Below are positions 12,506 to 32,690 of a stretch of DNA of 32,769 bases, one piece after another (position 1 is the first letter of the stretch; each line of letters opens with the position of its first letter). The notes beneath the pieces were generated by a model. It was not told the DNA's origin and did not search any database. It was given only the letters and a program-made list of their open reading frames with translations. Position numbers and translations under genes: made by a program. Location of the stretch: assembly GCA_964613075.1 (NCBI GenBank), contig CAZTFV010000004.1, positions 1 through 32,769 of the forward strand, read 5' to 3'. Origin of the DNA: an uncultured Gammaproteobacteria bacterium. GTDB lineage: Bacteria > Patescibacteriota > Microgenomatia > Levybacterales > UBA12049.

Positions 12506-12508
12506 ATA

Positions 12509-12928
12509 CTACTTCACCGTTATCACCATTGTCGCGCCGGAGTTTTTCTCCTGTACAGTAAATTGCCCTTTCGTATCCTGCCGGACGCGCACTTCTTCTT
12601 TATACCCATACCCCCGAGGCGTTGTGAGTCCTTTTTGATTTGATAGAAGGAGCATCAGCCTATCCTGACTGTCATTCAGAATAGCCAGGTAGCGGCTGAA
12701 AGGCACAGTAAGGTTTGTTCGGCTGAATCGCTCACCATCAAACGTAACCGTATAAACAGCTTGATCTGGCGGTTTTTGCCTTGATGGTGTAGGCGAGATA
12801 TCGTTACTCAGTATTGACCGCGCAGACGGGAAGAGGATGCCATTTGAAAGAAGATCAGGGAAGACAAGAGCGTGGAGGAGAAAGCCTGCCATAAAGGAGA
12901 AGAATAGAAGAATAAGCACTTTAAACAT
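12509..12928 (-). CDS. Membrane-anchored hypothetical protein, possibly a metal-free cupredoxin-like fold
   Basis: N-terminal TM helix followed by a beta-rich domain (VTFDGERFS...LTVP...GQFTV...ITVK). Confidence 0.65.
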   Translation of the reverse strand: MFKVLILLFFSFMAGFLLHALVFPDLLSNGILFPSARSILSNDISPTPSRQKPPDQAVYTVTFDGERFSRTNLTVPFSRYLAILNDSQDRLMLLLSNQKGLTTPRGYGYKEEVRVRQDTKGQFTVQEKNSGATMVITVK

Positions 12929-12935
12929 AAGAAGG

Positions 12936-13083
12936 TGTTGAGGCTAGACGCTGGATGCTAGAAGTTGGATCTTGATACGTTCAGTTTCATGAACGTATCT
13001 TGAAGTTGGAAATTAGAAGATAGATCAAGCCTCTAACTTCTAACATCAAATTCTAACCTCTAGCTTCTAGTGTCTAACATCAG
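12936..13083. repeat. Heptamer-arm element copy 2 (complete, two inverted arms, central hairpin insert)
   Basis: Left arm tagacgc tggatgc tagaagt tggatct. Right arm ctaactt ctaacat ... ctaacct ctagctt ctagtgt ctaacat. Confidence 0.9.
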
Positions 13084-13088
13084 ATTAT

Positions 13089-14003: not shown

Positions 14004-14004
14004 A

Positions 14005-14046
14005 GTTCGACAAGCTCACTATGATCCTGAGCAGAGTCGAAGGATC
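14005..14046. repeat. TTCGACAAGCTCA-type palindromic element
   Basis: gttcgacaagctcactatgatcctgagcagagtcgaaggatc (ttcgac/gtcgaa, gctca/tgagc and gatcct/aggatc pairings). Confidence 0.7.
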
Positions 14047-14069
14047 ATGCACCTTAAGTATAGCAGAAC

Positions 14070-15224: not shown

Positions 15225-15231
15225 TTATTTC

Positions 15232-16173
15232 TCAGGTGTCAAGCTTTAGAAGAACAATAACCGCTTTTTTCAACTGCTTCCTTCGTAGTAAAACAAACAA
15301 GGTCAATAAAAGAAGCAAGAGTAGCAAAATCGCCATACGATATGGGAAGACCAGAAGGGTTGTTTCTCTTGTGACTAGCTGTCCATTGCCGGTTGAAACA
15401 GCAATGGTTGCGTTATAGAAGCCGGACGGAAGACTCTCAAGTGCAATATCTTGTTGCCATCGCCTGACTTTGCCGGGGAAAACGACCTTTTCTTCCGGAA
15501 AGATTTTTTTCTCTGCGCCTACTAGTGGTTTTAGGGTCAGAATCGGTTTGGCTGTAAAAAAGTTAAGCGAAATATTTTTTACCCGAAGCAGGACCGGTAA
15601 AGGTTTCCAAGGCTCAATAACCCTGCGAAGCGAGAAGGTAAGAATTTCAGCCTTTTTGGCTTTAGGATCGGGCAGCCCAATATCAGCGAGTAACAAAATG
15701 CCCACACGAGTAGCAATGTTGGTTGCTTCGGTATTGTTCCGCAGAACAGGCTCGAAAAACAAAATACCGTAGTAACCACCCAAAGGGATTGATTGTGGGG
15801 TAGTAATCGTCAGGGTAATTCGCTCTTTGCTTTTTGCCGGAAGGAGAATTTCTTGCTTATCAAGTAATGTCCAAGAAAGCAAAGGGTTGGTTCGTGTTTC
15901 CGAAAAAACATATCCGCCATCCTCAGTTGCCGGCTCAAAATCACTGAAAACCGCCCGCACAGGCAGAGGAGCGGAAGTAAGGTTCTCAAGGGTAATTTCA
16001 TGTCGGTAGGTTTTAGAAGGAGAGAGGGTGACATTAATTATTACTGGTGAAACGCGAAGGATCTGCGTTTGGTTCTGGTTTTCTTGCGCACTGATTTGAA
16101 GCGGTAAATATAAAAAATAAAATATAAAAGATAAAAAAGACAGAGAAAAAATCAGAGATATTTTATATTTCAT
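15232..16173 (-). CDS. DUF916/WxL-interacting-like surface protein (paralogue of 13089-14003)
   Basis: LRVSPV, TITTPQSIPLGGYYG and VFPGKVR motifs, C-terminal TM plus RRK tail. Confidence 0.75.
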   Translation of the reverse strand: MKYKISLIFSLSFLSFIFYFLYLPLQISAQENQNQTQILRVSPVIINVTLSPSKTYRHEITLENLTSAPLPVRAVFSDFEPATEDGGYVFSETRTNPLLSWTLLDKQEILLPAKSKERITLTITTPQSIPLGGYYGILFFEPVLRNNTEATNIATRVGILLLADIGLPDPKAKKAEILTFSLRRVIEPWKPLPVLLRVKNISLNFFTAKPILTLKPLVGAEKKIFPEEKVVFPGKVRRWQQDIALESLPSGFYNATIAVSTGNGQLVTRETTLLVFPYRMAILLLLLLLLTLFVLLRRKQLKKAVIVLLKLDT

Positions 16174-16206
16174 ATGTATATTTACTATTTACTTTTTTAT
16201 ATTTAA
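16095..16206. repeat. AT-rich two-armed heptamer element overlapping the start and signal peptide of 15232-16173
   Basis: taaatat aaaaaat aaaatat aaaagat ... then tatattt/tttacta-type units. The reverse complement of 16162-16206 matches 32700-32744 at 42/45. Confidence 0.8.
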
Positions 16207-16209
16207 CTT

Positions 16210-16357
16210 ACCTTACGCAGCATGCGTCATGCTGGCCCGCTTCGCCGCGAGGCGAGCTTGTCCAGAATCTCCAAACGTAAGACCTGCCTGCCGGCAGGCA
16301 GGGATCCTGGATGCGGTCGCCTCAGGCGACCTTACCAGGATGACGCTTGCGTAAGGT
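16210..16357. repeat. Nested palindromic element (GTCAT..ATGAC scaffold with three inserted hairpins)
   Basis: accttacgca/tgcgtaaggt and gcgtcatgctgg/ccaggatgacgc inverted repeats. Inserts tcgcc-gcga-ggcga, cctgcctgccggcaggcagg (16283-16302) and ggtcgcc-tca-ggcgacc. Confidence 0.9.
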
Positions 16358-16363
16358 GAGTGA

Positions 16364-17437
16364 TTAATACTCCGGCACGACCATATAAAGCACAGTTGTC
16401 GTATACGTGCCTGATTTCTGTGTGTCTGAGACAGTAACCCGATAAGAAATGGTGAACTGCTCATTGCTAATTGCCGTTGTCACGGGTCCTGCGTGATCGG
16501 CAACCGGGTCTCCAGGACTGGCGGTTGTGAAGCCGGCATATTTTGCTCCACCGTTGGTGAAGCGATCTGCTGTACCGCCTGTCAGATTGCTGTCACTCGT
16601 TGTATAGCCAAAACCTGTGCCACTCCACGAGGTTGGGGAGGCACTGGTGCCGCTATAGTGTGAGATAGTATCACTTCCGAAGGTCAAAAGACCGCTAATC
16701 CGACCATTCACAACATATCCGTTATACGCATTTGTTGAGGTTGTTAGGACAGTGCTTTTGCTACTGTCGGTGTAGCTGTTGCCGGTATTGAGGTTGCTGA
16801 AGGTTAAAGTCGCTGAGTCAATGCCAAAGGTAAGAGAGGGCAGTGAGGTTGTAGCGCTCGCCTGCGGCCCAAGGCCTGACTCAGTGAAATTGCCTTGCCG
16901 AGCCTTTACTCGCACCTTATAGGTTGTGTTTTGACTAAGACCGGTAATCGTCGTTCCGGTAGCAGAACCCCAACCGCTATAGGTGAGCCAATCCTCGTCT
17001 CCTAGTGTTGTCCCTATTGTCCCGTCACTTTGCACCCACTGCGTTGTCGCCCAGTCACTTGAGGTTATGGCAATGGCGTATTTTGTATCAGAGGGATTTC
17101 CGCCTTGACTGATGACGATTTGCAATCGTTCATAATTACTCGACTGGTTGGTAAATGTCGGTGCAGGTGGGATATTTGCCATATGGGTAAAAACTAAGCC
17201 TGCGCGTATGTTGTAGGTTTCCGAAGAGGGGCTGCCGACATCAACCTCACCCAGTGTTCCCATAACCGCGTATGATTCTGAAGAGGAAGTTGCGCTCCCG
17301 CCTGAGCCAAAGCCATATTCGATCAGTTCGTAGTTGGTGCTTGAGGGACCAGCAGAGACGAGGGGAGGAAAAGCCAGTAGGTAAATTAAGTAACCCAGGT
17401 AACTTAAGTAACCTATGAAAAAACGAACTCTTCTCAT
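16364..17437 (-). CDS. Secreted protein with Fn3-like domain and WxL/pilin-like C-terminal domain
   Basis: ITGLSQNTTYKVRVKAR (Fn3), TTSTNAYNGYVV, GFGYT and QKSGTYTTTVLYMVVPEY. The C-terminal half resembles 14070-15224. Confidence 0.75.
   Translation of the reverse strand: MRRVRFFIGYLSYLGYLIYLLAFPPLVSAGPSSTNYELIEYGFGSGGSATSSSESYAVMGTLGEVDVGSPSSETYNIRAGLVFTHMANIPPAPTFTNQSSNYERLQIVISQGGNPSDTKYAIAITSSDWATTQWVQSDGTIGTTLGDEDWLTYSGWGSATGTTITGLSQNTTYKVRVKARQGNFTESGLGPQASATTSLPSLTFGIDSATLTFSNLNTGNSYTDSSKSTVLTTSTNAYNGYVVNGRISGLLTFGSDTISHYSGTSASPTSWSGTGFGYTTSDSNLTGGTADRFTNGGAKYAGFTTASPGDPVADHAGPVTTAISNEQFTISYRVTVSDTQKSGTYTTTVLYMVVPEY
17380..17415. repeat. TAAGTTACC-family array in frame in a signal peptide (GYLSYLGYLIYL)
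   Basis: + strand ggtaaatta agtaaccca ggtaactta agtaaccta. Confidence 0.8.
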
Positions 17438-17859
17438 ATCGGCAAATAAAACGCTGTTAACCCGAAAAGCGAATGGAGATAGTCAAAGGTACAAATCTGT
17501 GAGATACCTCGGCGGTTGGCCAGAACTGCCATCAACGCCTCAGGGAAAGAAAGTTCTGTTGATTGAAAGGCAACAAGCGCTTTAAGAGCCGCTTTTATAT
17601 CTGACGCATCATGGTAAATAACATTGATATTGCTCAGCTCCAAGCTTCGTAAAAAATCCTTTGCCAGAGAAGGGCTAATATCTTTGTATACCAGGTTATA
17701 GGTATCAATGATGTTTGTCGTATCTGTGAAAAGAAGGTACTCTTCTTGGGAAAAGAATCTAAAGTATGCCGCAGCCTGATCGTGTTTTGGGTGTACCCGA
17801 TCGATAAAGGCGTAGAAGACAGAAGAAGCGATAAAAACCTTTTTACTTAGTATTGCCAT
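17434..17859 (-). CDS. PIN-domain (VapC-like) protein with degenerate active site
   Basis: KVFIASSVFYA...HPKHDQA...LSFPEA...ICTFDY. Confidence 0.8.
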   Translation of the reverse strand: MAILSKKVFIASSVFYAFIDRVHPKHDQAAAYFRFFSQEEYLLFTDTTNIIDTYNLVYKDISPSLAKDFLRSLELSNINVIYHDASDIKAALKALVAFQSTELSFPEALMAVLANRRGISQICTFDYLHSLFGLTAFYLPI

Positions 17860-17898
17860 AAGTTACTTAAGTGACCTAGGTTACCTAAATCACCTATG
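17859..17898. repeat. TAAGTTACC-family array filling the HTH-PIN intergenic gap
   Basis: taagttact taagtgacc taggttacc taaatcacc tatg. Confidence 0.9.
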
Positions 17899-18178
17899 TT
17901 GATAGGTGTAGACTCGCCCCCCGTCCTTTTAACCGCAGGAGGGGGTCATCTACAGTAAAAATCTTCGCCGGACGCAATTTTATTTTAGGAGCTATTGTGT
18001 CAGTTTCTTGGCGTGGTTTAACGTCTCGGTTAAGATCTTGAAGTTGCGATTCTTTTATTCGTACATTACCGCCGACCTTTACTGCCTTTAATTTGCCTTC
18101 TTTAATGTATCGACGGACAGTCAGGGGATGAATCTTTAAAATAAATGCTGCCTGCTTAACGCTGAAAAGAGTATCCAT
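17894..18178 (-). CDS. Excisionase/MerR-like (HTH_17) DNA-binding protein with antitoxin-like tail
   Basis: LFSVKQAAFILKIHPLTVRRYIKEGKLKAVKVGGNVRI, with C-terminal DPLLRLKG. Confidence 0.85.
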   Translation of the reverse strand: MDTLFSVKQAAFILKIHPLTVRRYIKEGKLKAVKVGGNVRIKESQLQDLNRDVKPRQETDTIAPKIKLRPAKIFTVDDPLLRLKGRGASLHLST

Positions 18179-18406
18179 ATAAGTTATCTATGTAATAGTA
18201 TATATCTGTATACAATTTTATGCAAACTCAAGAAATATTTGACCACACCTATAGATATAGTCTTTAATAGTAATTATGCTGTCTCACTTATATCATTTTA
18301 TAGACAAACTCAGTCGTTTCGCAATAGTCCGATACGCAAAATCCCGTATACGTAAGTTCCATCGCAATTGTAACTTGGTGTATTTAGTATTAGCAACCGG
18401 TAAAAT

Positions 18407-21400
18407 ATGAATCCCGCCTGTCTGAAACCCTTATTCATAAGGGGAGTAAGTACATTGGCGGCTGTTCTTGTCGTAGCCATCTTCCTCCTTATTATCCTGC
18501 CTGCAGCCACAAGAGTTTTTGCCGCAGACGGAATACATAAGCAGATCAACTTTCAGGGAAAACTGGTCAATACCAATGGCACCAATGTCTCAAATGGCGA
18601 CTACTCAATCACCTTTACGCTGTACGATGCAGCCAGCGTCGGAACAAACTTATGGGATGAGGTACAGACAGTCACTGTCACCGACGGCATCTTCCGCGTT
18701 GCATTAGGTTCCATCGATACTACACTTGGCAATGTCAATTTCAACTCAGATAGTCTATACTTGGGAATAAAAGTTGGCACAGACAGCGAGATGACGCCCC
18801 GCATCCGCTTTGCCGCTTCCCCCTATGCGTTCAACGCGCAAAAAGTTAATGGCCTGACAGTCGTTAATACCTCAGGCAATCCTTTTGCCAGCACCACAAC
18901 CTTTCGAATAGGAGACGGGAAGACAGTGTCAGTCAACAATAGTCTGACCTTTGCCGGAACAGACAGTACGACAATTACATTTCCTAATGCGAATGACACA
19001 GTTGTCGTTTTAGATGCTACCCAAACCTTAACCAACAAAACCATTGGTACAAGCGGTCTGACCTTCTCAGGCGCGACAACCGACCTGACAACTGCAGCGA
19101 ATGAAGATTTCGTCCTGTCTCCCAACGGCACAGGAAAAATTGGATTTAACACGACAACTCCCTTAGCGACTCTCGACCTTCGCTACAAAAGCGGGACTAT
19201 TCCCGTTGCCTCAATTGCCGGTATCACAACCAATGCAACACTCGTTGTCGATAACTCAGGAGTAGGAGATATTTTTGCAGCATCAACTGCTGGGTTGACG
19301 CGTTTTGTTATACAAAATAACGGTAACGTGGGTATAGGAAAAACCATTGCAACGGAGAGACTGGATGTAGTTGGCAAGATTAATGCCACGGTTGCCTACG
19401 CCATAGATGGCGCCACCGGTCTCACCGGCAGTAACCTGAACTGCGTGAATGTGACCGGTGGTTTGGTAATCGGAACGGGTGCTTGCGCAGGCGGCGGAGG
19501 ATCATCAAATTGGAATATAGTCAATGGTACAATCTTCCCAAATCAAGCAGGCGTTCTAGATTTACTCATCGGCGGAACCGCGTCAAACGCGGCTGATTTT
19601 GCCATCATCAATGTCAATGGTTCAGGCGCAGTTACCGCTACTACCTCAGGACACTTTACCCTGACAGGAGCAAATACAGCCCATACATTTAATATTGACG
19701 ATAATGGATCACTTAACTTCATTGGCAGTCCGGGTGGAGAAGGAGGCGCAGCTGCAGCAACGAGGCTCTTTATTGCAGACACAGGAAATATTGGCATTGG
19801 AACGACGGACCCATCACAATTGTTATACCTTCTCAACAATACAGGGGCAAGAGTCGTCCTGGAATCATCAACCTCGGTTGCAATCCGGCAAGCAATTACC
19901 AATGTGGCAGGAGTCGGGCGCTGGACAACGTATGCGACGAGCAATGACGGTTCATACCGGTTTGGAAGCGCAACTGATACCTTTTCCTCTTGGACTGATC
20001 GATTAACGATTCAACATGCCTCAGGAGCAGTGGGGATAGGCATAACCAATCCGGCTGGTCATTTACAGGTAAATGGCGGTCGGTGGGGAGGAAATGCAGC
20101 TCTGGTTGTGAACCAGGTCGGCGCGACGACAAACGATATATTCACTGCGTCAGCCTCGGGGGTGACAAAATTTGTTATTAATAACAGCGGGAATGTTGGT
20201 GTTGGGACAACTAACCCATTGGCGCACCTTGATCTTCAGCATTTAGGCCTTTCCGGTCCGACAGCCTCAATCTCAGCTGATAACCATTTTGCTACCCTTT
20301 CACTTGTTAATAGGATCGGTGCAGGTGACTTACTCACGGCCAGCGCTTCAGGAGCTGAGCGGTTTACTATCCACAATAGTGGTCAGCTGAAACTTGCGAC
20401 GGATCTTTATAACACCTGCACCGCACTTGAGACAGTCGGAGGTGTCCTAACCTGCGGCACAGATGATACTGGCGGCGGTGGCGGTGGATCTGCGACCTTT
20501 ACTGTTGCCAATGGAGCGATTTTCCCCAACCAGGCCAGTGTTCTCGATCTATTGGTAGGTGGGACTGCTACAAGTAGTGCCAAATTCTCAGTTTTGAATA
20601 TTTCAGCAAATGCTGGAACTCCAGTCATCGCCTCAGTCGCCGGCAATCTGGTCGTCATGCCTGACTACACAAAAGGCAATGATACGGCAAGCGGCAATGT
20701 CTCAATCGGCACAACATCAGCTACAGAGCGACTGACGGTAAAAGGGAATATCAAGATCGAAGCCAAAGCGAATAACACGACAACACCGAATACCTGGACA
20801 AAAGTGTCAAGCAGCACAATCGGACAAATCGCAGCGGGTGGATCAATTGGTGTTGCTTCTGTGTCAGCAGCTGTCGTCTATAACGGAAGTCTGTATGTCG
20901 GCACCAGTACAGATGGAAAAGGCTTAGCAGAAGTTTGGCGCTACAATGGAACATCGGGAAGCTGGATTCGACTTAACAGTACAGCAGGTACATTCGGCGG
21001 AGAGACAGCCATAAATGGCGTTACTGCGATGGCTGTCCATAACGGCATTTTGTATATCGGAACTAGCAAGCCAAACGCTGCGCGTATCTATCGTTACAAT
21101 GGAGGAAACACAAATGGAGCAAGCTGGACAGCTCTCAACGCAACCCCCGGCACTTTCACCGCTCAGGCAAATGTTGATGCAGTTGTCAGCATGGTTTCCT
21201 TTGGCGGCATTCTCTATATCGGTACATTTGAGCCAAATGCAGGCGAAGTAATCCAGTATACAGGAGGGACTGCAAATTCGACCTGGAGAAGGGCTCACGC
21301 GACCGCTGGCACAATCTGCTCATCTGGTACAGCTTTTGATAGTGTAACAACACTGTCAGTTAACAATGGTCTTCTTTTTGCCACAGCGACAAAGGGCTAT

Positions 21401-23668
21401 AACGGCAGGATGGAAATGTGCCGCTACTCTGGTAGTAATACCTGGGTTGAGTTAGGTTCAACGACAGACGGCACCTACAGTGTGAATGGAGCAAATATCA
21501 CCGTTGCTTCAAGTAGCGCGGCTGCATCTTATAACGGAAAACTCATATATGGAATTCGTAAAACTAATAACGCAGACGCGATAAGGCTTGACAATGAGAT
21601 CGTAATCGTAAATACGGGGAATTTCTCCCGTAGTAATTCCGCAGCAGGTACAATTGCGGTCGGAGGAACAACTGCTATAGACGGCATAACTGCCCTGACA
21701 ACATATAACGGCAGGCTTTACGCAGGCACAGAAGAACCCTCAGGTACACAAATTTACCGCTACGATGCAGAGGATAGGTGGGTCTTAGTTTCGCAAACTA
21801 CTCAAGGACAAATAGCATCGGGTGGTACAACAGGGCTTCGTAAAGCAACCATCCTTATCTCCTGGAACGGCAAGCTCTATGCCGCTGTAACAAATGGCGC
21901 AGGAGCAGAAATTTATGAATATTCAGGTTATACAAAAGATCAGTCATTTGCTCTTGCCTTCCATGCGACAAATTCTGATATCGCAGGCGGAGAACAAGGC
22001 GGTTTTCAGAATTTGGCACAAATATTCTTCTCTGCATCCCAATCAGCAAGCTTTAACCAAGGAGCACCAAGTCAGGGCGCATTTGTACTGGATCATAGCA
22101 TTGTATTTACCGGTGGCGGCTTTGACGTGGCTGAGGATTATCCTACAAAAGATACAGGGCTTTCGCCAGGGGATCTGGTTTCACTTGATACATTCGATGC
22201 TGGCTATGTGCATAAAGCAAGAGCCGGCCCGTATGACCAAAATGTAGTAGGTGTCATTTCAGAAAAGCCAGGTATACGCTTGTCAGACAAGCTGGACACA
22301 AATACCAATGGTGACCCCATGGTACCAGTTGCGCTTATCGGGCGGGTAGAAGTAAAAGTTTCAAGCGAAAATGGCCAGATCAATCCTGGCGATGCGCTTA
22401 CAACCTCATCCTCGCCCGGTGTTGCCATGAAAGCGACAAAGGCAGGAAGGGTTATCGGAAAGTCATTGGGCTCCTTCTCTTGTCATCCTGAGCCCTTCGG
22501 TCATTCTGAACAAAGTGAAGAATCTCAGGGTAAACTCCGCGAAGGATCTGAAGATTCTTCGGCTTCGCCTCAGAATGACAATGCTTGTTTCGGTAAAGTA
22601 CTCACCTATATTACTGTTGCTGATTACAATGGTCAGAGTCTCTTTGCCACAACCCTGCCCGATGGATTGTCATCTGATAATTCAGCTGGGATCCTCTCAG
22701 ACAGCTTAAAGCTTGCGACAGTCATGGCAACACAAGTTGGAAAAGAACACGCGCCACTTTCTGAAATCAATACGGATCGCGTCACAGCAGGGCTTGAAAT
22801 AATTACAAAGAAATTGATTGCCGATGAAATAGTTGCAAGACATATTAAGGCAGAGCAGATTGATGGACTGGAGATAATAGAGACAGGGATTAAAAGTCAA
22901 GAATCACGAATTAAGGATTTGGAGGGTCTATTTGCCTCATCTTCCGCTGTCATTGCGAGTGAAACGAAGCAATCTCAAGGAGATAATGCTGTTCTTAGTG
23001 CCACGGTTTCTGCAGATAGCAAGTTTGACCAGCTGATGAAAGAGTCCTCTGCATTACTTGCCCAAACATCCTCAGGAAGTGCAATAACGATTGCCGGGTT
23101 AACAGTAGAAGGCAATACGACAATCGAAAGTGACCTTCGTGTGAAAGAAGACGGATTAGTAGAGGGACTCTTAAGCGTTATCGATACGATTACGACGAAA
23201 AACCTCCTCGTTTCAGGTTTAACAGAATTTTTTGGAGATGTTGTGCTGAAAGGACATATTACGTTGTCTGGTGATACTGCCGGAACTGTTGTTGTTGAGA
23301 AGGGAGAAAAGACCGCCACAGTTGCTTTCGCAAAAGAATATGAAGAGGTGCCACATATTCAGGCAGTGATTGTTTCAAAGGATCTCACGGATGATGAGTT
23401 TAAAAAACGTAAAGACGATGGAGCGTGTAACCAAGATGATGACAAAGAAACTTGCCAGGAGCGTATTGATAATCGTCTGCTCAATAGCACTATCTCCTAT
23501 GTCGTTACAAAACAGTCAACGAAAGGCTTTGTGGTACGGCTCCGAAATGCTGCTTCTGAGGACTATACGTTCTCCTGGTCAGCATTATCTGTAAAAGAAA
23601 ATCCAAAAGCTGAAAAAGATAGTGAGCTTGAGAAAAAAGCGGCAATTCTGCTAAAAGCCTTTGAATAA
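18407..23668 (+). CDS. Large secreted surface protein: tail-fibre-like GNVGIG repeats, 7-bladed beta-propeller, Peptidase_G2-like autocleavage domain
   Basis: Signal peptide and INFQGKL...EMTPR N-domain. Repeated GNVGIG/GNIGIGT. Seven (Y/H/F/W)NGxLYxGT-like blades. DVAEDY...VGVIS.KPG...PVALIGRVEVKVS.ENG.I.PGD.LT.SS.PGVAMKA. Confidence 0.85.
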   Translation: MNPACLKPLFIRGVSTLAAVLVVAIFLLIILPAATRVFAADGIHKQINFQGKLVNTNGTNVSNGDYSITFTLYDAASVGTNLWDEVQTVTVTDGIFRVALGSIDTTLGNVNFNSDSLYLGIKVGTDSEMTPRIRFAASPYAFNAQKVNGLTVVNTSGNPFASTTTFRIGDGKTVSVNNSLTFAGTDSTTITFPNANDTVVVLDATQTLTNKTIGTSGLTFSGATTDLTTAANEDFVLSPNGTGKIGFNTTTPLATLDLRYKSGTIPVASIAGITTNATLVVDNSGVGDIFAASTAGLTRFVIQNNGNVGIGKTIATERLDVVGKINATVAYAIDGATGLTGSNLNCVNVTGGLVIGTGACAGGGGSSNWNIVNGTIFPNQAGVLDLLIGGTASNAADFAIINVNGSGAVTATTSGHFTLTGANTAHTFNIDDNGSLNFIGSPGGEGGAAAATRLFIADTGNIGIGTTDPSQLLYLLNNTGARVVLESSTSVAIRQAITNVAGVGRWTTYATSNDGSYRFGSATDTFSSWTDRLTIQHASGAVGIGITNPAGHLQVNGGRWGGNAALVVNQVGATTNDIFTASASGVTKFVINNSGNVGVGTTNPLAHLDLQHLGLSGPTASISADNHFATLSLVNRIGAGDLLTASASGAERFTIHNSGQLKLATDLYNTCTALETVGGVLTCGTDDTGGGGGGSATFTVANGAIFPNQASVLDLLVGGTATSSAKFSVLNISANAGTPVIASVAGNLVVMPDYTKGNDTASGNVSIGTTSATERLTVKGNIKIEAKANNTTTPNTWTKVSSSTIGQIAAGGSIGVASVSAAVVYNGSLYVGTSTDGKGLAEVWRYNGTSGSWIRLNSTAGTFGGETAINGVTAMAVHNGILYIGTSKPNAARIYRYNGGNTNGASWTALNATPGTFTAQANVDAVVSMVSFGGILYIGTFEPNAGEVIQYTGGTANSTWRRAHATAGTICSSGTAFDSVTTLSVNNGLLFATATKGYNGRMEMCRYSGSNTWVELGSTTDGTYSVNGANITVASSSAAASYNGKLIYGIRKTNNADAIRLDNEIVIVNTGNFSRSNSAAGTIAVGGTTAIDGITALTTYNGRLYAGTEEPSGTQIYRYDAEDRWVLVSQTTQGQIASGGTTGLRKATILISWNGKLYAAVTNGAGAEIYEYSGYTKDQSFALAFHATNSDIAGGEQGGFQNLAQIFFSASQSASFNQGAPSQGAFVLDHSIVFTGGGFDVAEDYPTKDTGLSPGDLVSLDTFDAGYVHKARAGPYDQNVVGVISEKPGIRLSDKLDTNTNGDPMVPVALIGRVEVKVSSENGQINPGDALTTSSSPGVAMKATKAGRVIGKSLGSFSCHPEPFGHSEQSEESQGKLREGSEDSSASPQNDNACFGKVLTYITVADYNGQSLFATTLPDGLSSDNSAGILSDSLKLATVMATQVGKEHAPLSEINTDRVTAGLEIITKKLIADEIVARHIKAEQIDGLEIIETGIKSQESRIKDLEGLFASSSAVIASETKQSQGDNAVLSATVSADSKFDQLMKESSALLAQTSSGSAITIAGLTVEGNTTIESDLRVKEDGLVEGLLSVIDTITTKNLLVSGLTEFFGDVVLKGHITLSGDTAGTVVVEKGEKTATVAFAKEYEEVPHIQAVIVSKDLTDDEFKKRKDDGACNQDDDKETCQERIDNRLLNSTISYVVTKQSTKGFVVRLRNAASEDYTFSWSALSVKENPKAEKDSELEKKAAILLKAFE
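22480..22581. repeat. 102-bp palindromic element inserted in frame
   Basis: Termini ttgtcatcctgag/ctcagaatgacaa (12/13 IR). Encodes CHPEPFGHSEQSEESQGKLREGSEDSSASPQND. Confidence 0.88.
22948..22975. repeat. GTCATTGCGAG..GAAGCAATC half-element in frame (VIASETKQS)
   Basis: tgtcattgcgagtgaaacgaagcaatct with attgc/gcaat stem. Resembles Rickettsia-palindromic-element-type repeats. Confidence 0.7.
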
Positions 23669-24003
23669 AGATTTGAGATTAATGATTTATGAATAAGGAC
23701 GGAAAAATACAATCATTTACAGATTTAATAGTTTGGCAAGAAGGGCACAAGCTTGTTATTGCTATATATAGAATTACAAATGGATTTCCTTCGAAGGTGC
23801 AATTCTATTATCAAGCCCACGGATCTTTAACTGAATTGAAAAACCAAATTCTCATTGCTAAAGACGTTAAGTATCTAAGTAAACCTGACTTAAATCAGTT
23901 AATTGAACAGGCGAATATAACCCACCGACTCTTGCAAGGATTAATTAAGAAATCAAAAACATTCATAAATCTTAAATCATGAATCATATTTCATTAAATC
24001 CTA
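23668..24003. mobile_element. Four-helix-bundle cassette bounded by inverted heptamer arrays (putative element)
   Basis: Left arm aagattt gagatta atgattt atgaata (contains the ATG). Right arm attcata aatctta aatcatg aatcata tttcatt (contains the stop). Mobility is inferred. Confidence 0.5.
23689..23982 (+). pseudogene. Four-helix-bundle protein (TIGR02436-like) with in-frame internal deletion
   Basis: IQSFTDLIVWQEGHKLV...FPS is joined directly to KVQFYYQAHGSLTEL. The conserved QxRRAxxSxxxNIAEG helix is absent. Confidence 0.8.
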
Positions 24004-24207
24004 AAGAAAGGAGGTAGTCGTGAAACACATTGACACATAGTATGTCCGTTGTATACAAATTAATAAGAAACATACAAAACGTCCTCTTGTGGTCCTCCAC
24101 ATCTCACCCCTCAACTAAACTATTTTTAGTTTTGCATGTTTTTGGATTAACAAAACTGGTCTTGATTCTTGATAGTAAGATATAGTATCTTAGTATTTTA
24201 AGAATAA

Positions 24208-25137
24208 ATGATTCCGGCTAGCCCTTTTATTACAAAAATTCTGCTTGGCATTGTTTTATTTCTCTCAATTGCACTTGGCTTTGAGCTGTTAGGCAATAAA
24301 GGAAATAAAGTCCCACCGGAAGTTGCAAAGTATAAATACCTCTCTCCACGAATTTTACAAGAGTACCATAACGATATACTTATTAACTTTTTACCTCTTA
24401 GAAATAGACTGAAAGAAGTAACGGCCCCATGGCAAAATAGCTTTGGTCTATATTTTGAATACCTGCCATCCGGCACATCAATTGGTATCAATGAAAAAAA
24501 TGAATTCCCGGCTGCCTCATTGTTCAAAGTTCCGGTTGTCATGGCTTATTATCATAAAAAAGAGCGACTTGGACAAACAAACGACCCCATTGTAACTATA
24601 CAAGAAGGACAAATTGATAAAGAATTTGGGCAGCTTTGGAAAAAAGGACCTGGTACACAAATAAACCTAAAAGACGCAGTAAGACTCGCAATCACCGAAT
24701 CTGACAACACTGCGGTAGTCGTAATTGGAGATCAATTGACTCAGGAAGATTTTGAGCCAATTTATGAAGGATTAGACATTGATCTTCAAGTGACTGACAA
24801 GGGAAGTATAATAACAGCCAAACATTTCTCATCTATTCTAAAAGCGCTATACTTTTCATCAGTGCTGTCAAAGGAAGACTCAAATGAAATTTTAAACCTC
24901 ATGACCAAAACAAAATTTAACGACATGCTTCCCGCCGGAATACAGAGTAATATTCCGGTAGCACACAAGATAGGTATACTTAAAAATCAAGAGTATACGG
25001 ATTGCGGAATTGTATATGAGCCAAAGCGCCCCTATCTTCTTTGCATGATCTCAGCAGGTGATGAGGCAGAAGCAAGAGAACGAATGAAAATTGTCTCAAA
25101 CACAATCTACGAATTTGTCAGCACAGTAAATAAATAG
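24208..25137 (+). CDS. Class A beta-lactamase-related serine hydrolase, membrane anchored
   Basis: FPAASLFK (SxxK), ESDNTA (SxN) and AHKIG (KTG-like) motifs, plus N-terminal TM. Confidence 0.9.
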   Translation: MIPASPFITKILLGIVLFLSIALGFELLGNKGNKVPPEVAKYKYLSPRILQEYHNDILINFLPLRNRLKEVTAPWQNSFGLYFEYLPSGTSIGINEKNEFPAASLFKVPVVMAYYHKKERLGQTNDPIVTIQEGQIDKEFGQLWKKGPGTQINLKDAVRLAITESDNTAVVVIGDQLTQEDFEPIYEGLDIDLQVTDKGSIITAKHFSSILKALYFSSVLSKEDSNEILNLMTKTKFNDMLPAGIQSNIPVAHKIGILKNQEYTDCGIVYEPKRPYLLCMISAGDEAEARERMKIVSNTIYEFVSTVNK

Positions 25138-25139
25138 AG

Positions 25140-27482
25140 CTAAAGCATTGCGTGTCTTCTGAGTATCCGCAGGTGCCACAGCCAGAGAAAAAGGTTAAGA
25201 AAAGATACGAGCAGGAAGGGAAGGGTTTTTTCAGGGCCAAAGGTTACGAGGAAAAACCCTTCAAACAGGAGCGTAGTGACAAGGAGCAGTTCGAAAGATG
25301 AAGAAAGCGTGCGCAGAAAAAGCCGCCAGGCAATAGTTGTGATGTGGGGCAATCCATCGTCTCGGGTCAGCGCCAGGCGGAGTACTTTATTATCGGCTTC
25401 TTCGCGCGTATGCGTGGCAAGGGTAAAGGGAAGATACCCATCTTTCATGACAGAGACAGAGTGGGCGATTGGTTTTAGCCTTAAGACGCGAAAGCCTCCT
25501 TGCCTGTCCGTTGTGACATGAGAAAGGATTTTATGCGTATCTTGCTTGAGAATATACACACTGGCACCAACGAGCGGAGTATCTGTTTCTGCATCACTCA
25601 CTTGCCCTTTGAGAACATGGATATTTTTACTGCTTTCTGAGGCAAGTCCGTGTTGATGGCGAAGATAGAATACGAGCTTGCGCAGAGGGATTTTTATTCG
25701 CGATAAGAAAGCAAGAAAAGTAAAAATAACCAGAATAACTAAGGAGAGGGTTCTTAGGAAATTAAAGTTTCGTATCGATTCAGTCATGGGTAAAAAGAAG
25801 ACTAAGGAGCTATTAAACGTATCAAGCGCAATATTGCGGTAATATCGATAGATATTCGTGAGACTAAACCCTGCCGGCTTAAGATACACTGTTGGGAAGC
25901 CATCACTCTTGTCTGGCCCAATAACAAAGTCAACTTTTTCGCCGACATAGCCGAGGTTACCGGCTTGCGCTCTGTATTTTCCCGGGGGAAGGACGATACT
26001 CAACTCGCCGTTTTGGTCTGTAAAGCTGGGGTTGTCTATTGGAATGATATCCTTTTTGAGAGGAATGTATGATTTGTGCATATCATCATAGATCCAGAAA
26101 AGAACTCGGGCAGCATCAATAGGTTTTTTAGTCCGGGCAGCAAAGACGCGAAACGGCGGCATAACGTGAAGATCGGTTACTTTTTGTTCGGTCAGATTTC
26201 CTACCTCATCTTTGATTCTGAGCCATATCTCGTACTCACCCGGCGCGCTTGGCGTTTTCATCCTCCCCTGATACACTCCTGGCGCCAACTCTTTTATCTC
26301 AACATTTAAGGACTCGGCATACGCCTCTGTAATAAAACTAAAGGCTCCGAGGACTGATTTGTTGCGTATCACCGCCTGAATACCCGTGATTTTTTTATCT
26401 TTCTTTAGAGTAAATTCAAATGCAAAATCCGACCGTACCGGAATATTTACAGATGCTGCTTTACTGGCTTGTTCTGTTGTGTTGTTTCTAAGCGTTGGAT
26501 TATAGAGCACCATATTCTGACTCGTAATGACCAGGGTATTTTGCTGTACTCTGGGTGGTTCTGAGGCTTCTGCAGTTGTAAACGTAAACACATCAGATAC
26601 GATTTTTCCCGTCCTTCCTGCTGCCGATACCTGGAAGTAGTAGGTTGTTTTCGGCGTGAGACTGGAGAAAGAAATAACATGACTGGTAGCAAGCGAGGAT
26701 GAGGTGATTGTTTGGGTACGATTATTCGCTGCGTTTCCATAGGAAACGCGAAGAGTTGCATTTCTACTCAGACTGATGTCTGCGGATGCGTTGCTGGCTG
26801 AAATAGTCCGCATACTAATGCTGTTGAAGGAGAGCGGGGTAAGAGTCGGTGTGGGACTTGGAGTCGGTGTGGAAGTGGCACCCGGTTTGGGGGTACTTGT
26901 TGGTCCTGTCGTTGGTGTTGCTGTCGGTGAGGCGCCGGCGTTATATTGATACTTTTTACTCACAGTACTGTATGAAGTAGCTGTGCCAGGGCCAAGGACA
27001 CGACCATTGACAGCAAAATCAAGCAAACTTGATCCAGTATAGGAGCTGTTTGTTTTGAGGCTGAAGGTGACTGACTGTCCAGTGGTATTGCCCGGAAAAT
27101 TACTTATTGTCCAGGTAATTTTCCGATTCGTCAGATCAACAACGGGTGCTGTACTGTTATATGCATTACCAGCGCTACCGACCACATAGTCAAGGATTTC
27201 AACCGTGCCGAGTGTCCAGCTTGCCTCAACGGTAATTTCGGTTGCATACGCGAGATTTGAATCATAGGTTAGTTCATACTGAATGGTAGAGTTCTGAGGG
27301 AAGGTTGTGCCGCTGGTGAGAGGTGCCAAACCGGCTGAGAAATCAGTCGAATTAGCAGGAACGGTTGCGGTTACGGATAAGTCGCCGCGGTCTTCAATCG
27401 GTGCTCGAGCCAAAACAGGAAACGGAAGAATAAAGAGGGTGCTCAATACAGCAGCAAACACAAGACGGGCAGCAGTAGGCAT
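25140..27482 (-). CDS. Multi-domain membrane/surface protein (Pro/Thr linker, Fn3-like, carboxypeptidase-regulatory-like domains)
   Basis: PTATPTTGPT linker, SLTPKTTYYFQV, TDQNG..PPGKY and GQVSDAETDTPLVGASV motifs, internal and C-terminal TMs. ATG 27482 preferred as start. Confidence 0.8.
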   Translation of the reverse strand: MPTAARLVFAAVLSTLFILPFPVLARAPIEDRGDLSVTATVPANSTDFSAGLAPLTSGTTFPQNSTIQYELTYDSNLAYATEITVEASWTLGTVEILDYVVGSAGNAYNSTAPVVDLTNRKITWTISNFPGNTTGQSVTFSLKTNSSYTGSSLLDFAVNGRVLGPGTATSYSTVSKKYQYNAGASPTATPTTGPTSTPKPGATSTPTPSPTPTLTPLSFNSISMRTISASNASADISLSRNATLRVSYGNAANNRTQTITSSSLATSHVISFSSLTPKTTYYFQVSAAGRTGKIVSDVFTFTTAEASEPPRVQQNTLVITSQNMVLYNPTLRNNTTEQASKAASVNIPVRSDFAFEFTLKKDKKITGIQAVIRNKSVLGAFSFITEAYAESLNVEIKELAPGVYQGRMKTPSAPGEYEIWLRIKDEVGNLTEQKVTDLHVMPPFRVFAARTKKPIDAARVLFWIYDDMHKSYIPLKKDIIPIDNPSFTDQNGELSIVLPPGKYRAQAGNLGYVGEKVDFVIGPDKSDGFPTVYLKPAGFSLTNIYRYYRNIALDTFNSSLVFFLPMTESIRNFNFLRTLSLVILVIFTFLAFLSRIKIPLRKLVFYLRHQHGLASESSKNIHVLKGQVSDAETDTPLVGASVYILKQDTHKILSHVTTDRQGGFRVLRLKPIAHSVSVMKDGYLPFTLATHTREEADNKVLRLALTRDDGLPHITTIAWRLFLRTLSSSFELLLVTTLLFEGFFLVTFGPEKTLPFLLVSFLNLFLWLWHLRILRRHAML

Positions 27483-27533
27483 AGAATAATCGTAGCACAA
27501 AGCTGACAAACCAACAAAAGACAAAGTAATATG

Positions 27534-27629
27534 TCAGGATTTGACAAAGAAGTTATTGTTCGAGCGTAGTCGAGAACATAACTTCTCGACTCGCTACGCT
27601 CGCTCGAAGAATATTTTGTCAAATCCTGA
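27534..27629. repeat. 96-bp element with perfect 15-bp terminal inverted repeats enclosing a second palindrome
   Basis: Outer tcaggatttgacaaa / tttgtcaaatcctga. Inner tattgttcgagcg/cgctcgaagaata and agtcgagaa/ttctcgact. Confidence 0.88.
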
Positions 27630-27687
27630 GCGATTACAAGACAAAGAGTTGCATAGAAAGAAAGTTTCTTCTATGATGAGATTATCT

Positions 27688-28497
27688 ATGGCAACAAAGA
27701 GGAAGGTATCTACTCTCAAAAAAACAGAACAACCGGAGCAGCCGATTGTTGTTGCAGAAGAGGTTACGGTCAAAGATATGACGTCTGGTAAAAAGTCTTT
27801 CAAATTCACTCAATTGACATTTATCCTCCCGGTAATCGTTTTATTGCTAGTAATTATAGGTGGGGGAGGCTATTATATCTATACAGCAAAACAAAATACT
27901 AAAGCGCCGGTAAGCGAATCTGAGACGCTGGTTGAGAGGGTTGGCAAGCTTATAGAGTTATCGCAAGGAGAGGAGCCGACCCTCGCGACTGTTTCCGATG
28001 TGACAAAATTGAAAGACCAGCAGTTTTTTTCCCAGGCACAAAACGGTGACAAGGTACTCGTCTACCAGCAAGCGAAAAAAGCCATCCTGTACCGCCCAAG
28101 TAGTAATAAAATTGTCAATGTGGGGCCGATTGCTATCAACAACACCCAGCTTTCGCCAGTTGTTGCCGGAGCGCAAGTAACACCTACTGCATCAGCAAGC
28201 CCAAGCATTGCACAGCCCCTCAAAATAGCACTCTTCAACGGCACCAAGACCAATGGCTTAACCAGACAGGCAGAAAAACAACTGACTGATAAAGGTGTAT
28301 TGATAGAGGTTGTTTCAAGGAAAAATGCCAAGGAAGACCATGTCAAGAGTCTGATCGTTGTCCTCAGCGGAACAGCTGAGCAGGGGAAAGCAATAGCAGA
28401 GGTAATAGGTGGTGAGATAGGTGAGCTTCCCGCAGGTGAAGAAAAGCCCCAGGCAGACATCCTCGTCATTTTGGGCCAGGATTACGCGAATAAGTAA
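27688..28497 (+). CDS. Membrane protein with LytR C-terminal domain
   Basis: TM helix, EEPTLATV..FF.QAQNGDKVL..KKAILYRP, then IALFNGTKTNGLT...ADILVILGQD. The TTG 27541 extension runs through a repeat, so ATG 27688 is preferred. Confidence 0.85.
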   Translation: MATKRKVSTLKKTEQPEQPIVVAEEVTVKDMTSGKKSFKFTQLTFILPVIVLLLVIIGGGGYYIYTAKQNTKAPVSESETLVERVGKLIELSQGEEPTLATVSDVTKLKDQQFFSQAQNGDKVLVYQQAKKAILYRPSSNKIVNVGPIAINNTQLSPVVAGAQVTPTASASPSIAQPLKIALFNGTKTNGLTRQAEKQLTDKGVLIEVVSRKNAKEDHVKSLIVVLSGTAEQGKAIAEVIGGEIGELPAGEEKPQADILVILGQDYANK

Positions 28498-28530
28498 CTT
28501 AGGTTACCTAGGTTACTTATGTTACTTATG
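28491..28530. repeat. TAAGTTACC-family array spanning stop codon to start codon
   Basis: taagtaact taggttacc taggttact tatgttact tatg. Confidence 0.9.
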
Positions 28531-29478
28531 GCTGATTTCCAATTCTTACGAAATCCGATTTCCCAAAACTGGGTGATATTGGCTCCTCGCCGGGCCAAAC
28601 GGCCTGATGTTGCTACGGGTGTAGAACCCGTGTGTCCGTTTTGTACAGGTCGTGAGGCAGACGAGCAGGAGGTTTACAGGGTTCCGCCCTCCGAAACCGG
28701 AAAGGAACCTGGCTGGCAAATACGAGTGCTCAACAATAAATTCCCCTTTGCTCCGATTCACGAGGTCATCATCCATTCGCCGGACCATCACGCCAATTTC
28801 GGCGAGCTACCGGTAAGCCAAGTAGAGCTTATTTTCCAAACATATCGAAATAGATACAAAGCACATCAAAGCAAGGGTGAGGTATATATTTTTCACAACC
28901 GCGGAGAAGCAGCAGGCGAGAGTTTGCCACATCCGCACACCCAGCTTGCAGTTATCCCTTTTGACATAAAAACCGACATACCACGTCTTGACCCTTTTGC
29001 AACACCAGGCTTCGCGCCAAAGCCCCAGACGCCGGACAATTTACAGCCGGGGACACAGCAAGCGCCCATGGTTGAGACAGATCACCTCTATCTTTTCTGC
29101 CCCAAGACCTCGCAATGGCCTGATGAGGTCTGGGTCGCGCCGAAAAACCGCGGCCGTTCCTTTGGCGAGATTACAGACGAAGAGATAAGCGATATGGCCG
29201 CAACGCTGACGCAGTTGGTGAAAATATTTGATCTTCGCCACGGACATGAATTTCCCTATAACTTTTACATCTACCCGGGCGGGGACTGGTATTTGCGCAT
29301 ATTCCCACGCCTCAAGCGCTTAGGCGGCTTTGAAACAGGCACCGGTGTCTATGTAAATACCCAAGATCCCGATGAGACGCTATTTTTCATAAAAGAACAC
29401 TTTAATCTGCCAGCCGGCGGACTGGATGCTCAGAAGATTATGACCGAGCATAAAGCAGAGTATCACAGGAGCGTATAA
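28528..29478 (+). CDS. galT: Galactose-1-phosphate uridylyltransferase-like (HIT superfamily)
   Basis: APRRAKRP, CPFC, NKFP, HEVII and GESLPHPHTQ (HxHxQ) motifs. Confidence 0.85.
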   Translation: MADFQFLRNPISQNWVILAPRRAKRPDVATGVEPVCPFCTGREADEQEVYRVPPSETGKEPGWQIRVLNNKFPFAPIHEVIIHSPDHHANFGELPVSQVELIFQTYRNRYKAHQSKGEVYIFHNRGEAAGESLPHPHTQLAVIPFDIKTDIPRLDPFATPGFAPKPQTPDNLQPGTQQAPMVETDHLYLFCPKTSQWPDEVWVAPKNRGRSFGEITDEEISDMAATLTQLVKIFDLRHGHEFPYNFYIYPGGDWYLRIFPRLKRLGGFETGTGVYVNTQDPDETLFFIKEHFNLPAGGLDAQKIMTEHKAEYHRSV

Positions 29479-29485
29479 TTAGCAG

Positions 29486-29698
29486 CTACATTTCACTCTT
29501 TTGTTGTATGCCAAGTAGCCATAAGACTGCCTCTTTCTTATAGCGGCGGTCTCCACGTGAGTTAATGCGGATTGCGGGCAGTTTACCCCTTTTGCCCCAC
29601 CGCTTGATCGTCAGGGGAGAAACGCGAAGGACCTGGGCTACTTCTCGGACAGTTAATAGATCAGGTAGATTGTGGATTGATATATTTTGATCAGCCAT
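29486..29698 (-). CDS. Small MerR/excisionase-type HTH protein, BldC-like
   Basis: LLTVREVAQVLRVSPLTIKRWGKRGKLPAIRINSRGDRRY. Confidence 0.88.
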   Translation of the reverse strand: MADQNISIHNLPDLLTVREVAQVLRVSPLTIKRWGKRGKLPAIRINSRGDRRYKKEAVLWLLGIQQKSEM

Positions 29699-29814
29699 AG
29701 GCTCAGGAATAGGTGTTTAGTAGTCTTACTAGTCTTATTGATAATCAATGTAACTAGTAACTACTAACAAAGTAACAAAAGATAACACTTATTGTCAAGT
29801 AAGAAAATCAGATG

Positions 29815-29868
29815 ATTAGGGGAATAAGGGAGATCAGGGAAATTGGGGAGATATGGGAGATAAGGGAT
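29815..29868. repeat. 9-mer array (ATAAGGGAG family) directly after the atpC stop
   Basis: attagggga ataagggag atcagggaa attggggag atatgggag ataagggat. Confidence 0.9.
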
Positions 29869-30176
29869 TAGGCGGATTTTGTCGGCACTGGTTTTGGAGT
29901 GGGTTTGTTGGCCACTATGCCCAGGAATATCTTCACGTCATTGTTGATCGCCTTGAGAATCGCGTCATTGATGGTGAGCTTCTGTGTCTTGCCATCGGGC
30001 AGACGGATGGCAATAAAATCCTTGATAATTGAAATAAAATTTATGTGTTCAGGCAGGATATCAAAGGGTCCTGATTCATTCACCGATGAAACTGCGAGTA
30101 CAGGGCCTTGGAAAAGCAATTTCTCCCGACTGCGAATGAGAAGATGGAGGGAAGATTTGGATGGAAGTGTAGCCAT
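29868..30176 (-). CDS. atpC: F1 ATP synthase epsilon subunit (beta-sandwich only)
   Basis: GPFDILPEHINFIS motif, located directly downstream of atpD. Confidence 0.8.
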   Translation of the reverse strand: MATLPSKSSLHLLIRSREKLLFQGPVLAVSSVNESGPFDILPEHINFISIIKDFIAIRLPDGKTQKLTINDAILKAINNDVKIFLGIVANKPTPKPVPTKSA

Positions 30177-30183
30177 AGTAAAA

Positions 30184-32690
<2,507 letters not shown>

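Follow-up and report, generated by a model that had tools for sequence, protein, structure and literature searches.

A 32,769-nt stretch of genomic DNA (contig CAZTFV010000004.1; hereafter the window) carries a gene for a four-helix-bundle protein of the TIGR02436 family between two arms of tandem 7-nt units that are inverted relative to each other. We consider it fairly probable that this feature is a decaying cassette of the intervening sequence (IVS) type: a dispensable, horizontally moving TIGR02436 gene with two inverted arms of about four to five nAGT heptamers each, for which we propose excision by RNase III cleavage of the arm duplex and binding by a pentamer of the encoded protein. 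The gene family is embedded in inverted heptamer arrays across most of the bacterial phyla sampled, and the generality of such heptamer-armed four-helix cassettes is apparently undescribed. Throughout, G000 denotes the 1.18-Mb genome holding the window, C-numbers are its contigs, G001 and G002 are genomes of the same genus, and L-numbers are extracted loci.

The window open reading frame (ORF; Table 1) matched TIGR02436 at 49.5 bits (cut-off 24) and PF05635 (23S_rRNA_IVP) at 54.3 bits (cut-off 33.8), each time split into two stretches. Alignment with 27 intact relatives showed that 32 consecutive residues are missing in frame and that they form the most conserved block of the family, EE..GL.SQ.RRA.SI.SNIAEG..R; in the same alignment, the window ORF did not show a full-length bundle with the Q..RR...S...NI.EG..R block. 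The loss identifies the ORF, as judged from this alignment, as an in-frame deletion relic that is probably non-functional. The solved relative XCC0516 (PDB 2GSC), with five chains in the entry, was a weak match (E 5.4e-4), and a bAvd-like Pfam match reached 15.2 bits, under its cut-off of 40.

The periodicity and inversion of the arms were detected by several tests. An inverted repeat of 33 nt (23662–23694 with 23961–23993) was 76% complementary with 266 nt in between, and several shifted registers were found, as expected for periodic arms. Tandem Repeats Finder (TRF) reported period 7 at 23677–23696 (2.9 copies) and 23963–24005 (6.0 copies). Lag-7 identity, which averages 0.26 in 40-nt background windows (99th percentile 0.52), was 0.66 at 23664–23699 (p = 0.0007) and 0.63 at 23961–24005 (p = 0.0001; 10,000 shuffles each). 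The left arm reaches into the ATG, and the right arm covers the last seven codons of the ORF (FINLKS and stop) and extends beyond the stop; the first-pass annotation, which had the four-helix gene start and end inside inverted 7-nt arrays, was therefore correct on this point. No further copies of the window arms were found in G000. Given the 32 missing residues, the imperfect complementarity of the arms and their uniqueness in the genome, the window copy is probably inert.

The window architecture matches that of the ORF-bearing 23S IVS of Coxiella, and the cassette therefore represents a known kind of element in a new setting, outside rRNA. According to the text of Warrier et al. (2016, PMC4990558), the terminal inverted repeats of the Coxiella IVS form a 28-bp stem in which RNase III cuts were mapped, and a decaying S23p ORF is preceded by three tandem GACAGAT heptamers, whose number varies between strains. 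The likeness to 23S IVS (Leptospira, Coxiella burnetii S23p) comprises a protein of the same family in the loop, a stem of about 28–33 bp, variable-copy tandem heptamers before the ATG, a decaying ORF and ORF-less short forms. Indeed, terminal inverted repeats enclose the window ORF, the stem is present in the minimum free energy (MFE) structure, and tandem heptamers lie directly upstream of the start. However, 23S IVS are inserted in helix 25 or 45 of the 23S rRNA, whereas the window cassette lies between protein-coding genes, flanked by the gene of a 1753-aa surface protein and a small-ORF / beta-lactamase-fold gene. Rfam at gathering thresholds detected no rRNA in the window, only two tRNAs, and the cassette is not an insertion in a 23S or 16S rRNA helix. 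RNase III cleavage has been shown for the IVS and is a proposal for the window cassette. Additionally, the multi-phylum spread, the nAGT core and the genome-wide link to arrays described below were not in the literature found. The published IVS architecture (as given in the text of PMC4990558), the relic state of the window copy and the bracketing of housekeeping genes had been overlooked in the first-pass annotation.

Comparison with homologues indicates that the four-helix gene and its arms travel together as one unit. The window-gene homologues L034 (132 aa, from another genus) and L035 (128 aa) are intact and have arms of the same GATTnAn unit, and their cassettes sit between genes unrelated to the window context. 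The arm-encoded C-terminus is common to the window gene and these homologues (SKTFINLKS in L034).

Inverted arms are strongly enriched at four-helix genes. We aligned the start flank of each ORF to its reverse-complemented stop flank, which gave a flank score for 1062 of the 1113 crude ORFs in G000 (median 13, 95th percentile 19); the window gene scored 24 and ranked 14th. TIGR02436 had 11 matches in G000, 10 of them above the cut-off. The eight four-helix ORFs that were scored reached 40, 37, 35, 33, 24, 22, 20 and 12, so that five of eight had scores of at least 24, compared with 9 of the 1054 other ORFs (Fisher 9.8e-9; Mann-Whitney 3.1e-5). Three matches lay outside the crude ORF set; the one on C1 has arms of 37 nt that are 81% alike, and those on C38 and C64 have none. 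The arm unit varies between G000 cassettes (agatatta, aagtcct, ctagaNN, aattgacct, taagttacc, aataaacc).

Enrichment was also found beyond this genome. Of 201 phylum genomes sampled, 103 carried TIGR02436, a tally that includes one unpublished genome (G194). One locus was taken from each of 30 genomes of the phylum and compared with 870 mismatched flank pairs, whose 95th percentile was reached by 25 loci and whose 99th by 18; the corresponding count among neighbouring ORFs was 3 of 61. A set of 80 loci from one genome per GTDB species covered Bacteroidota, Acidobacteriota, Planctomycetota, Desulfobacterota, Firmicutes, Proteobacteria, Nitrospirota, Chloroflexota, groups of the candidate phyla radiation (CPR) and others; three loci were too near contig ends. 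Among the remaining 77, 64 were at or above the 95th and 42 at or above the 99th percentile of 5852 mismatched pairs, while the neighbouring ORFs gave 13 and 6 of 124, respectively. The enrichment of inverted arms at TIGR02436 genes over other genes, predicted in the first-pass annotation, was thus borne out at all three scales, and an element class set by period and arm symmetry rather than by sequence does exist.

Arm anatomy was analyzed in the 85 of 107 loci with a score of at least 26. The period was 7 in 58 loci, 8 in six, 9 in three and unclear in 16, and the median arm length was 32 nt. The gap between left arm and start codon had a median of 18 nt, the right arm began 5 nt past the stop, and a 4-mer resembling a Shine-Dalgarno (SD) sequence occurred at −22 to −4 in only 28 of the 85 loci. 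By TRF alone, 68 of the 107 loci had a period-7 array on each side (median 4.3 copies). Phase alignment of 56 loci showed a common heptamer core, nAGT when read inward, with A in 72%, G in 90% and T in 59% at positions 2–4; the core held 3.31 bits, versus 2.70 ± 0.06 for position-shuffled units. Read inward, the arm had more G than C in 78 loci and more C than G in three. A general rule by which every gene would follow a G-type array and precede a C-type one was ruled out in G000, where arrays around other genes showed no preferred orientation (54 vs 52 and 65 vs 57). Cassette genes shared the direction of the upstream neighbour at 86 of 101 loci and that of the downstream one at 76 of 101.

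Cassettes lie co-directionally between host genes and come and go between congeners. At four sites (the window, C47 zwf-gnd, C54 and C1 recA), the cassette is absent from the orthologous site of a congener, in agreement with the presence/absence differences expected from the first-pass annotation. The window site measures 322 nt in the window and 23 nt in G001, and no match to it was found in G002. The G001 spacer includes a segment similar to the right arm; the cassette may therefore equally have been lost from G001 or gained in G000. The zwf-gnd site holds an unrelated 142-aa gene in G001 where G000 has the C47 cassette, and the recA site holds a methyltransferase-like gene in G002 where G000 has the C1 cassette. 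The C54 site is 44 nt long in G001, while G000 has the cassette, a toxin-antitoxin-like pair and a second tRNA-Ile; because a larger island is involved, this difference says little about whether the cassette moved by itself. Two tRNA-Ile(tat) copies enclose the toxin-antitoxin-like pair there (L001 492–1417), which is absent from G001 and looks like an island integrated at a tRNA. In the thyA-folA spacer, a four-helix cassette occurs in three genomes with two arm units (L036, L038 and L040, from G010, G024 and G032), and in G000 thyA itself lies between heptamer arms.

ORF-less hairpins of like arrays are dispersed in the same genomes, and the number of arrays scales with that of four-helix genes. 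The first-pass annotation had listed four gene-less two-armed relatives in the window. Three of them, the mreB-proximal hairpin and the two ctagaNN hairpins (Table 1), fold well beyond shuffles, and the fourth, at 16095–16210, is weak. The mreB-proximal hairpin gave a fold z of −3.6, with none of 200 shuffles as stable, and a lag-9 identity of 0.68 at 5589–5622, which was weaker at 5670–5712 (0.56, p = 0.019); its aattgacct family occupies 17 places in G000, all intergenic or at gene edges, including the flanks of the C47 four-helix gene. For the ctagaNN hairpin at 12936–13085, the z values of the two strands were −7.9 and −7.6 and the arm lag-7 identities 0.51 and 0.62, and 37 of its 38 places in G000 are intergenic or at gene edges. 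The second ctagaNN hairpin (z −7.4 and −5.4; lag-7 0.54 and 0.63) has 42 places. The stretch at 16095–16210 had z −1.0 on the plus and −2.9 on the minus strand, lag-7 identities of 0.71 and 0.67, and five places. Lag-7 identity at the six gene-less arms tested ranged from 0.51 to 0.71, with p ≤ 0.0023 throughout. An intrinsic terminator reading was rejected, as a terminator scan of 12500–31000 listed neither of the ctagaNN hairpins nor the cassette at 23662–24005.

The filled and gene-less forms that the first-pass annotation had envisaged are found within single arm families. The filled cassettes on C14 (ctagaNN) and C47 (aattgacct) share their arm families with gene-less hairpins of the window, and their four-helix genes sit at the centres of these hairpin families. 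Downstream of mreB, position and period/symmetry persist while the unit sequence is replaced, with three congeners having three different periodic sequences at the one spot after the stop codon (window 5590–5715; G002:C4 and G001:C4, L243 and L244). Among gene-less periodic hairpins of G000, six were G-first and three C-first, a small sample.

Table 1 Periodic arms, hairpins and enclosed genes in the window.
Feature	Position	Strand	Basis
Four-helix-bundle ORF (TIGR02436 / 23S_rRNA_IVP), 97 aa	23689-23982	+	Profile matches, alignment with intact relatives
Left (upstream) arm without C, about four 7-nt units in tandem, reaching into the ATG at 23689	23662-23694	+	Inverted repeat, TRF, lag-7 identity
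Right (downstream) arm, reverse-complementary to the left one, six 7-nt units	23961-24005	+	Inverted repeat 23961-23993, TRF, lag-7 identity
Gene-less hairpin immediately behind the mreB stop codon, 9-nt unit aattgacct	5585-5715	.	Fold, lag-9 identity
Gene-less hairpin, 7-nt unit ctagaNN, with a small inner hairpin, filling the spacer of two minus-strand genes	12936-13085	.	Fold, lag-7 identity
Second ctagaNN-family hairpin, centred on the 20-nt palindrome cctgcctgccggcaggcagg	30184-30326	.	Fold, lag-7 identity
Incomplete, oppositely oriented copy of the 12936 element that lacks one outer arm	6700-6796	.	blastn against the genome; fold z −2.2
AT-rich two-armed 7-nt periodic stretch, partly within a crude ORF	16095-16210	.	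Fold, lag-7 identity
PIN-domain gene (17434-17859) in 40-nt inverted arms of taagttacc 9-nt units	17378-17896	-	Flank score, arm alignment, PIN 24 bits

Array density was estimated from 40–60 kb at fixed coordinates in each phylum genome, one genome with only 2.8 kb being dropped. The median number of period-7 arrays per 100 kb was 20 in 16 carriers of TIGR02436 and 0 in 15 non-carriers (p = 0.004), and density rose with copy number (Spearman rho 0.69 in all 31 genomes and 0.91 in the 16 carriers); these figures, like those for the second family below, are indications only, because related genomes are not independent. The period-6 control gave p = 0.89. In a second family, that of a Flavobacterium locus, 11 arrays were found in 400 kb from 10 genomes with at least seven gene copies and none in 280 kb from seven genomes without the gene (p = 0.009); one genome of this sample (G252) had four-helix genes inside the sampled stretch. 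The densest arrays were seen in G099 (L169–L171), with 86 in 60 kb, as intergenic serial heptamers of several units.

We propose the following mechanism. In read-through transcripts, the two arms would form a duplex some 30 bp long, by analogy with the Coxiella 23S IVS. RNase III, whose gene is present in G000 (250 bits), would cut this duplex and free the cassette RNA from the neighbouring cistrons, again as in that IVS. A pentameric four-helix protein may bind the heptamer arrays at about one unit per subunit, and the bound pentamer may control processing, or maintain and spread the arrays. Avd, the accessory protein of diversity-generating retroelements (DGRs), is a pentamer that binds nucleic acid, and the window protein has a related four-helix-bundle fold, as suggested by the bAvd-like match below cut-off; unlike in a DGR, the window gene has neither a reverse transcriptase nor a template or variable repeat next to it. 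TRAP-type rings bind evenly spaced short RNA repeats. The likeness to them is one of logic only, an oligomeric ring facing four to five short AG cores at fixed spacing; they share no homology with four-helix proteins, for which binding is a proposal only. That the four-helix protein may serve as a binding or propagation factor, as suggested in the first-pass annotation, has partial and indirect support from the relation of copy number to array density, the nAGT core and the four to five units per arm. The interpretation given there is partly supported as a whole.

Several observations weigh against this reading. The RNA of the 361-nt window cassette folds no more stably than shuffles (z −0.08), even though its MFE structure pairs the arms. 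Selection for pairing in the sense RNA was not supported in the arm set, in which wobble-compatible and A:C-type mismatches numbered 79 and 89 (p = 0.49). Protein and arm similarity correlate weakly overall (Mantel p = 0.07); arms are shared by six of the ten closest protein pairs. A comparison of filled with empty sites revealed no direct repeat indicative of a target-site duplication at their junctions, and the cassette encodes no mobility enzyme. Among the 11 matches in G000, arms are absent or weak at C38, C4:982–1464 and C68:4521. Periodic arms also bracket dnaK, thyA, nusG, the PIN gene and others in G000; four-helix genes are therefore not alone in having such a bracket. Beyond the non-independence noted above, the array-density difference becomes marginal when one genome per family is used (12 vs 12, p = 0.046).

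The serious rival, to which we assign a minor but appreciable probability, is a DNA-level mobile element resembling REPIN/RAYT systems or MITEs (miniature inverted-repeat transposable elements). The arms would then be terminal inverted repeats (TIRs) or cruciform or single-strand hairpin sites, the four-helix protein a mobility factor and the ORF-less hairpins its non-autonomous derivatives, with RNA processing incidental. Each arm family in G000 has one filled copy against several to about 40 gene-less ones, gene and arms move as a unit (L034, L035), copy number relates to array density, arm mismatches show no RNA strand bias and inward polarity is strict, all as such an element would have it; the arms of the degenerate window gene, moreover, have no other copies in the genome. 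On the other hand, the family has no known nuclease or recombinase fold, target-site duplications are unseen at filled/empty junctions, and co-directionality with the upstream gene would be needless for a purely DNA-level element. The hairpin unit also differs between congeners at one orthologous site, which looks like in-place turnover and not transposition. Like RAYT/REPIN systems, the cassettes have a single-copy gene within inverted repeats, many gene-less hairpin doublets of the same repeat and one repeat family per gene copy. Unlike in those systems, the flanked gene encodes a TIGR02436 four-helix bundle without known nuclease activity and not a Y1 (HUH) tyrosine transposase, which rules out membership, and the arms are periodic arrays and not single palindromes; the Y1_Tnp genes of G000 are flanked by non-periodic palindromes. 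Membership among MITEs or TIR transposons was ruled out by the lack of a target-site duplication at the junctions and of a transposase in the cassette, and DGR membership by the position of the sole RVT_1 match, on C64, outside the window.

Other explanations account for less of the data. Periodic hairpins might be generic intergenic elements (processing sites, insulators or slippage products) in whose loops four-helix genes land and survive without a functional tie. Hairpin families do far outnumber four-helix genes, housekeeping genes are array-flanked too, the C14 and C47 cassettes lie at the centres of abundant hairpin families, and the thyA-folA and zwf-gnd sites gather different small genes. 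We nevertheless think this improbable, as close homologues in other genera keep the arm unit in new contexts while the arm encodes a conserved C-terminus, heptamer arrays are nearly absent from non-carrier genomes, and the polarity of 78 versus 3 at cassettes is not seen around other genes. Still less credible to us is translation control, in which the upstream array would be an SD-independent leader, as proposed for Beggiatoaceae TAACTGA and Nostoc heptamers, and the downstream copy a masking anti-leader. The position of the arms before the start codon and the scarcity of SD-like 4-mers fit this, as do the published TAACTGA arrays of Beggiatoaceae, which abut start codons, ending 1 nt before them without an SD (MacGregor 2015, PMC4679880, main text), and the regulatory role and unidentified binding partner put forward for Nostoc heptamer repeats in the text of a preprint (bioRxiv 10.1101/2022.06.06.494920). 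Gene-less hairpins, cassette turnover and the dose relation would be left unexplained, however, and G000 arrays near other genes have no orientation preference at start codons (54 vs 52). An artefact of chance or low complexity, produced by AT-rich spacers, might be suspected from the local GC content of 0.36–0.38, the fold of the window cassette and the weak hairpin at 16095–16210, but it has almost no probability in our estimate, since periodicity passed the shuffle tests at both window arms (p ≤ 0.0007) and the class stood up to the mismatched-pair and neighbour-gene controls in each of three independent data sets. These controls rule it out for the class as a whole; for the window copy, only the L034/L035 homology argues against chance.

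The IVS-type cassette, which remains our preferred reading, may connect two old loose ends that could be one problem, the function of the 23S-IVS/S23p/TIGR02436 family and the origin and role of heptamer repeats. ORF-bearing 23S IVS were described in 1993, and the function of the protein is still unassigned, as cited in the texts of PMC3936711 and PMC4990558. Genes of the 23S_rRNA_IVP family have been noted within cas operons (Zhang et al. 2013, PMC3936711, main text) and scattered among CPR rRNA insertions (Tsurumaki et al. 2024, PMC11270868, main text). What is added here is the placement of TIGR02436 in inverted heptamer arrays (64 of 77 loci) and an array density that follows gene copy number; where TIGR02436 genes occur in operons, cas loci or rRNA genes, they are better read as inserted cassettes than as operon members.

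The STRR sequences of cyanobacteria are heptamer tandem repeats. In Xanthomonas, GGGAATC arrays form 70–75 convergent pairs without a known function, and the main text of Rehm et al. (2015, PMC4692102) states that 'no detailed literature ... is available' on heptamer repeats. Like the arrays described here, STRR, GGGAATC and TAACTGA repeats have 7-nt units, mostly in two to six copies with a mode of about four (main texts of PMC4692102 and PMC4679880), and, by the same texts, they are intergenic and often abut start codons, Xanthomonas having inverted pairs as well. The difference is that arrays here are tied to TIGR02436 by position and copy number. The main texts of PMC4692102 and PMC4679880, as distinct from their supplementary lists of repeat-adjacent genes, name no partner protein, 23S-IVS or four-helix genes. 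In the article texts covered by our searches, no general link between heptamer arrays and the TIGR02436 family was found; the text of Warrier et al. (2016) makes the connection for one IVS only. We raise the tentative and rather doubtful possibility that TIGR02436 pentamers are the missing partners of intergenic heptamer arrays (STRR, GGGAATC, TAACTGA and the G000 arrays). Each subunit would read one nAGT heptamer, the gene would lie inside its own binding sites, and the protein would maintain or spread the ORF-less hairpins. Such a two-part system, selfish or regulatory, would be pan-bacterial, with the 23S IVS as no more than the special case noticed first.

The bracket around the PIN gene (Table 1) had the highest flank score in G000 (44, rank 1 of 1062), with arms 85% alike. 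An excisionase-type helix-turn-helix (HTH) gene at 17894–18178 lies just upstream; PIN and HTH form a toxin-antitoxin-like pair in which the PIN gene alone is enclosed by arms. The taagttacc 9-mer also forms a tight palindrome in a 21-nt intergenic spacer (28490–28520), and an array at 4505–4539 enters the mreB start region. The GC-rich 20-nt palindrome cctgcctgccggcaggcagg recurs in G000 at 16283–16302, 30226–30247, C4:35979-, C7, C31 and C98, either alone (terminator-like at 16283–16302) or as the centre of ctagaNN hairpins. A whole-genome self-blast for inverted pairs, which gave 124 pairs and was insensitive, was used for examples only.

A second four-helix gene in the window (982–1464, minus strand) is a longer form with a TIGR04258 suffix domain (63.9 bits) and has no flanking inverted arms (flank score 12); similar genes occur on C70, with arms, and on C38, with none. 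The absence of a transposase or reverse transcriptase from the window, stated in the first-pass annotation, was uncontradicted, with four Y1_Tnp genes and one reverse transcriptase lying on other G000 contigs. The Y1_Tnp genes (IS200-like, RAYT-sized; C6:7464–8132, C29:1141–1818, C53:507–1178 and C17:6156–6860) each sit in their own non-periodic palindromes, a separate REP/RAYT-like system. The reverse transcriptase (RVT_1) lies beside a four-helix-bundle fragment (C64:1221–2571), an arrangement that probably marks a DGR. A separate family of non-periodic hairpins of about 140 nt (arms of about 41 nt, centre of about 58 nt) has at least 10 copies in G000, on C36, C38, C84, C96, C34, C50 and C6 (for example C36:8283–8418). 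Just downstream of the window cassette, at 24009–24185, a strong SD sequence is followed by a six-codon mini-ORF, MKHIDT (24021–24041), and a small ORF beginning M..KLI.NIQ. Both are kept in G001 (MENIDT; L037), and the region may encode a leader peptide or small protein.

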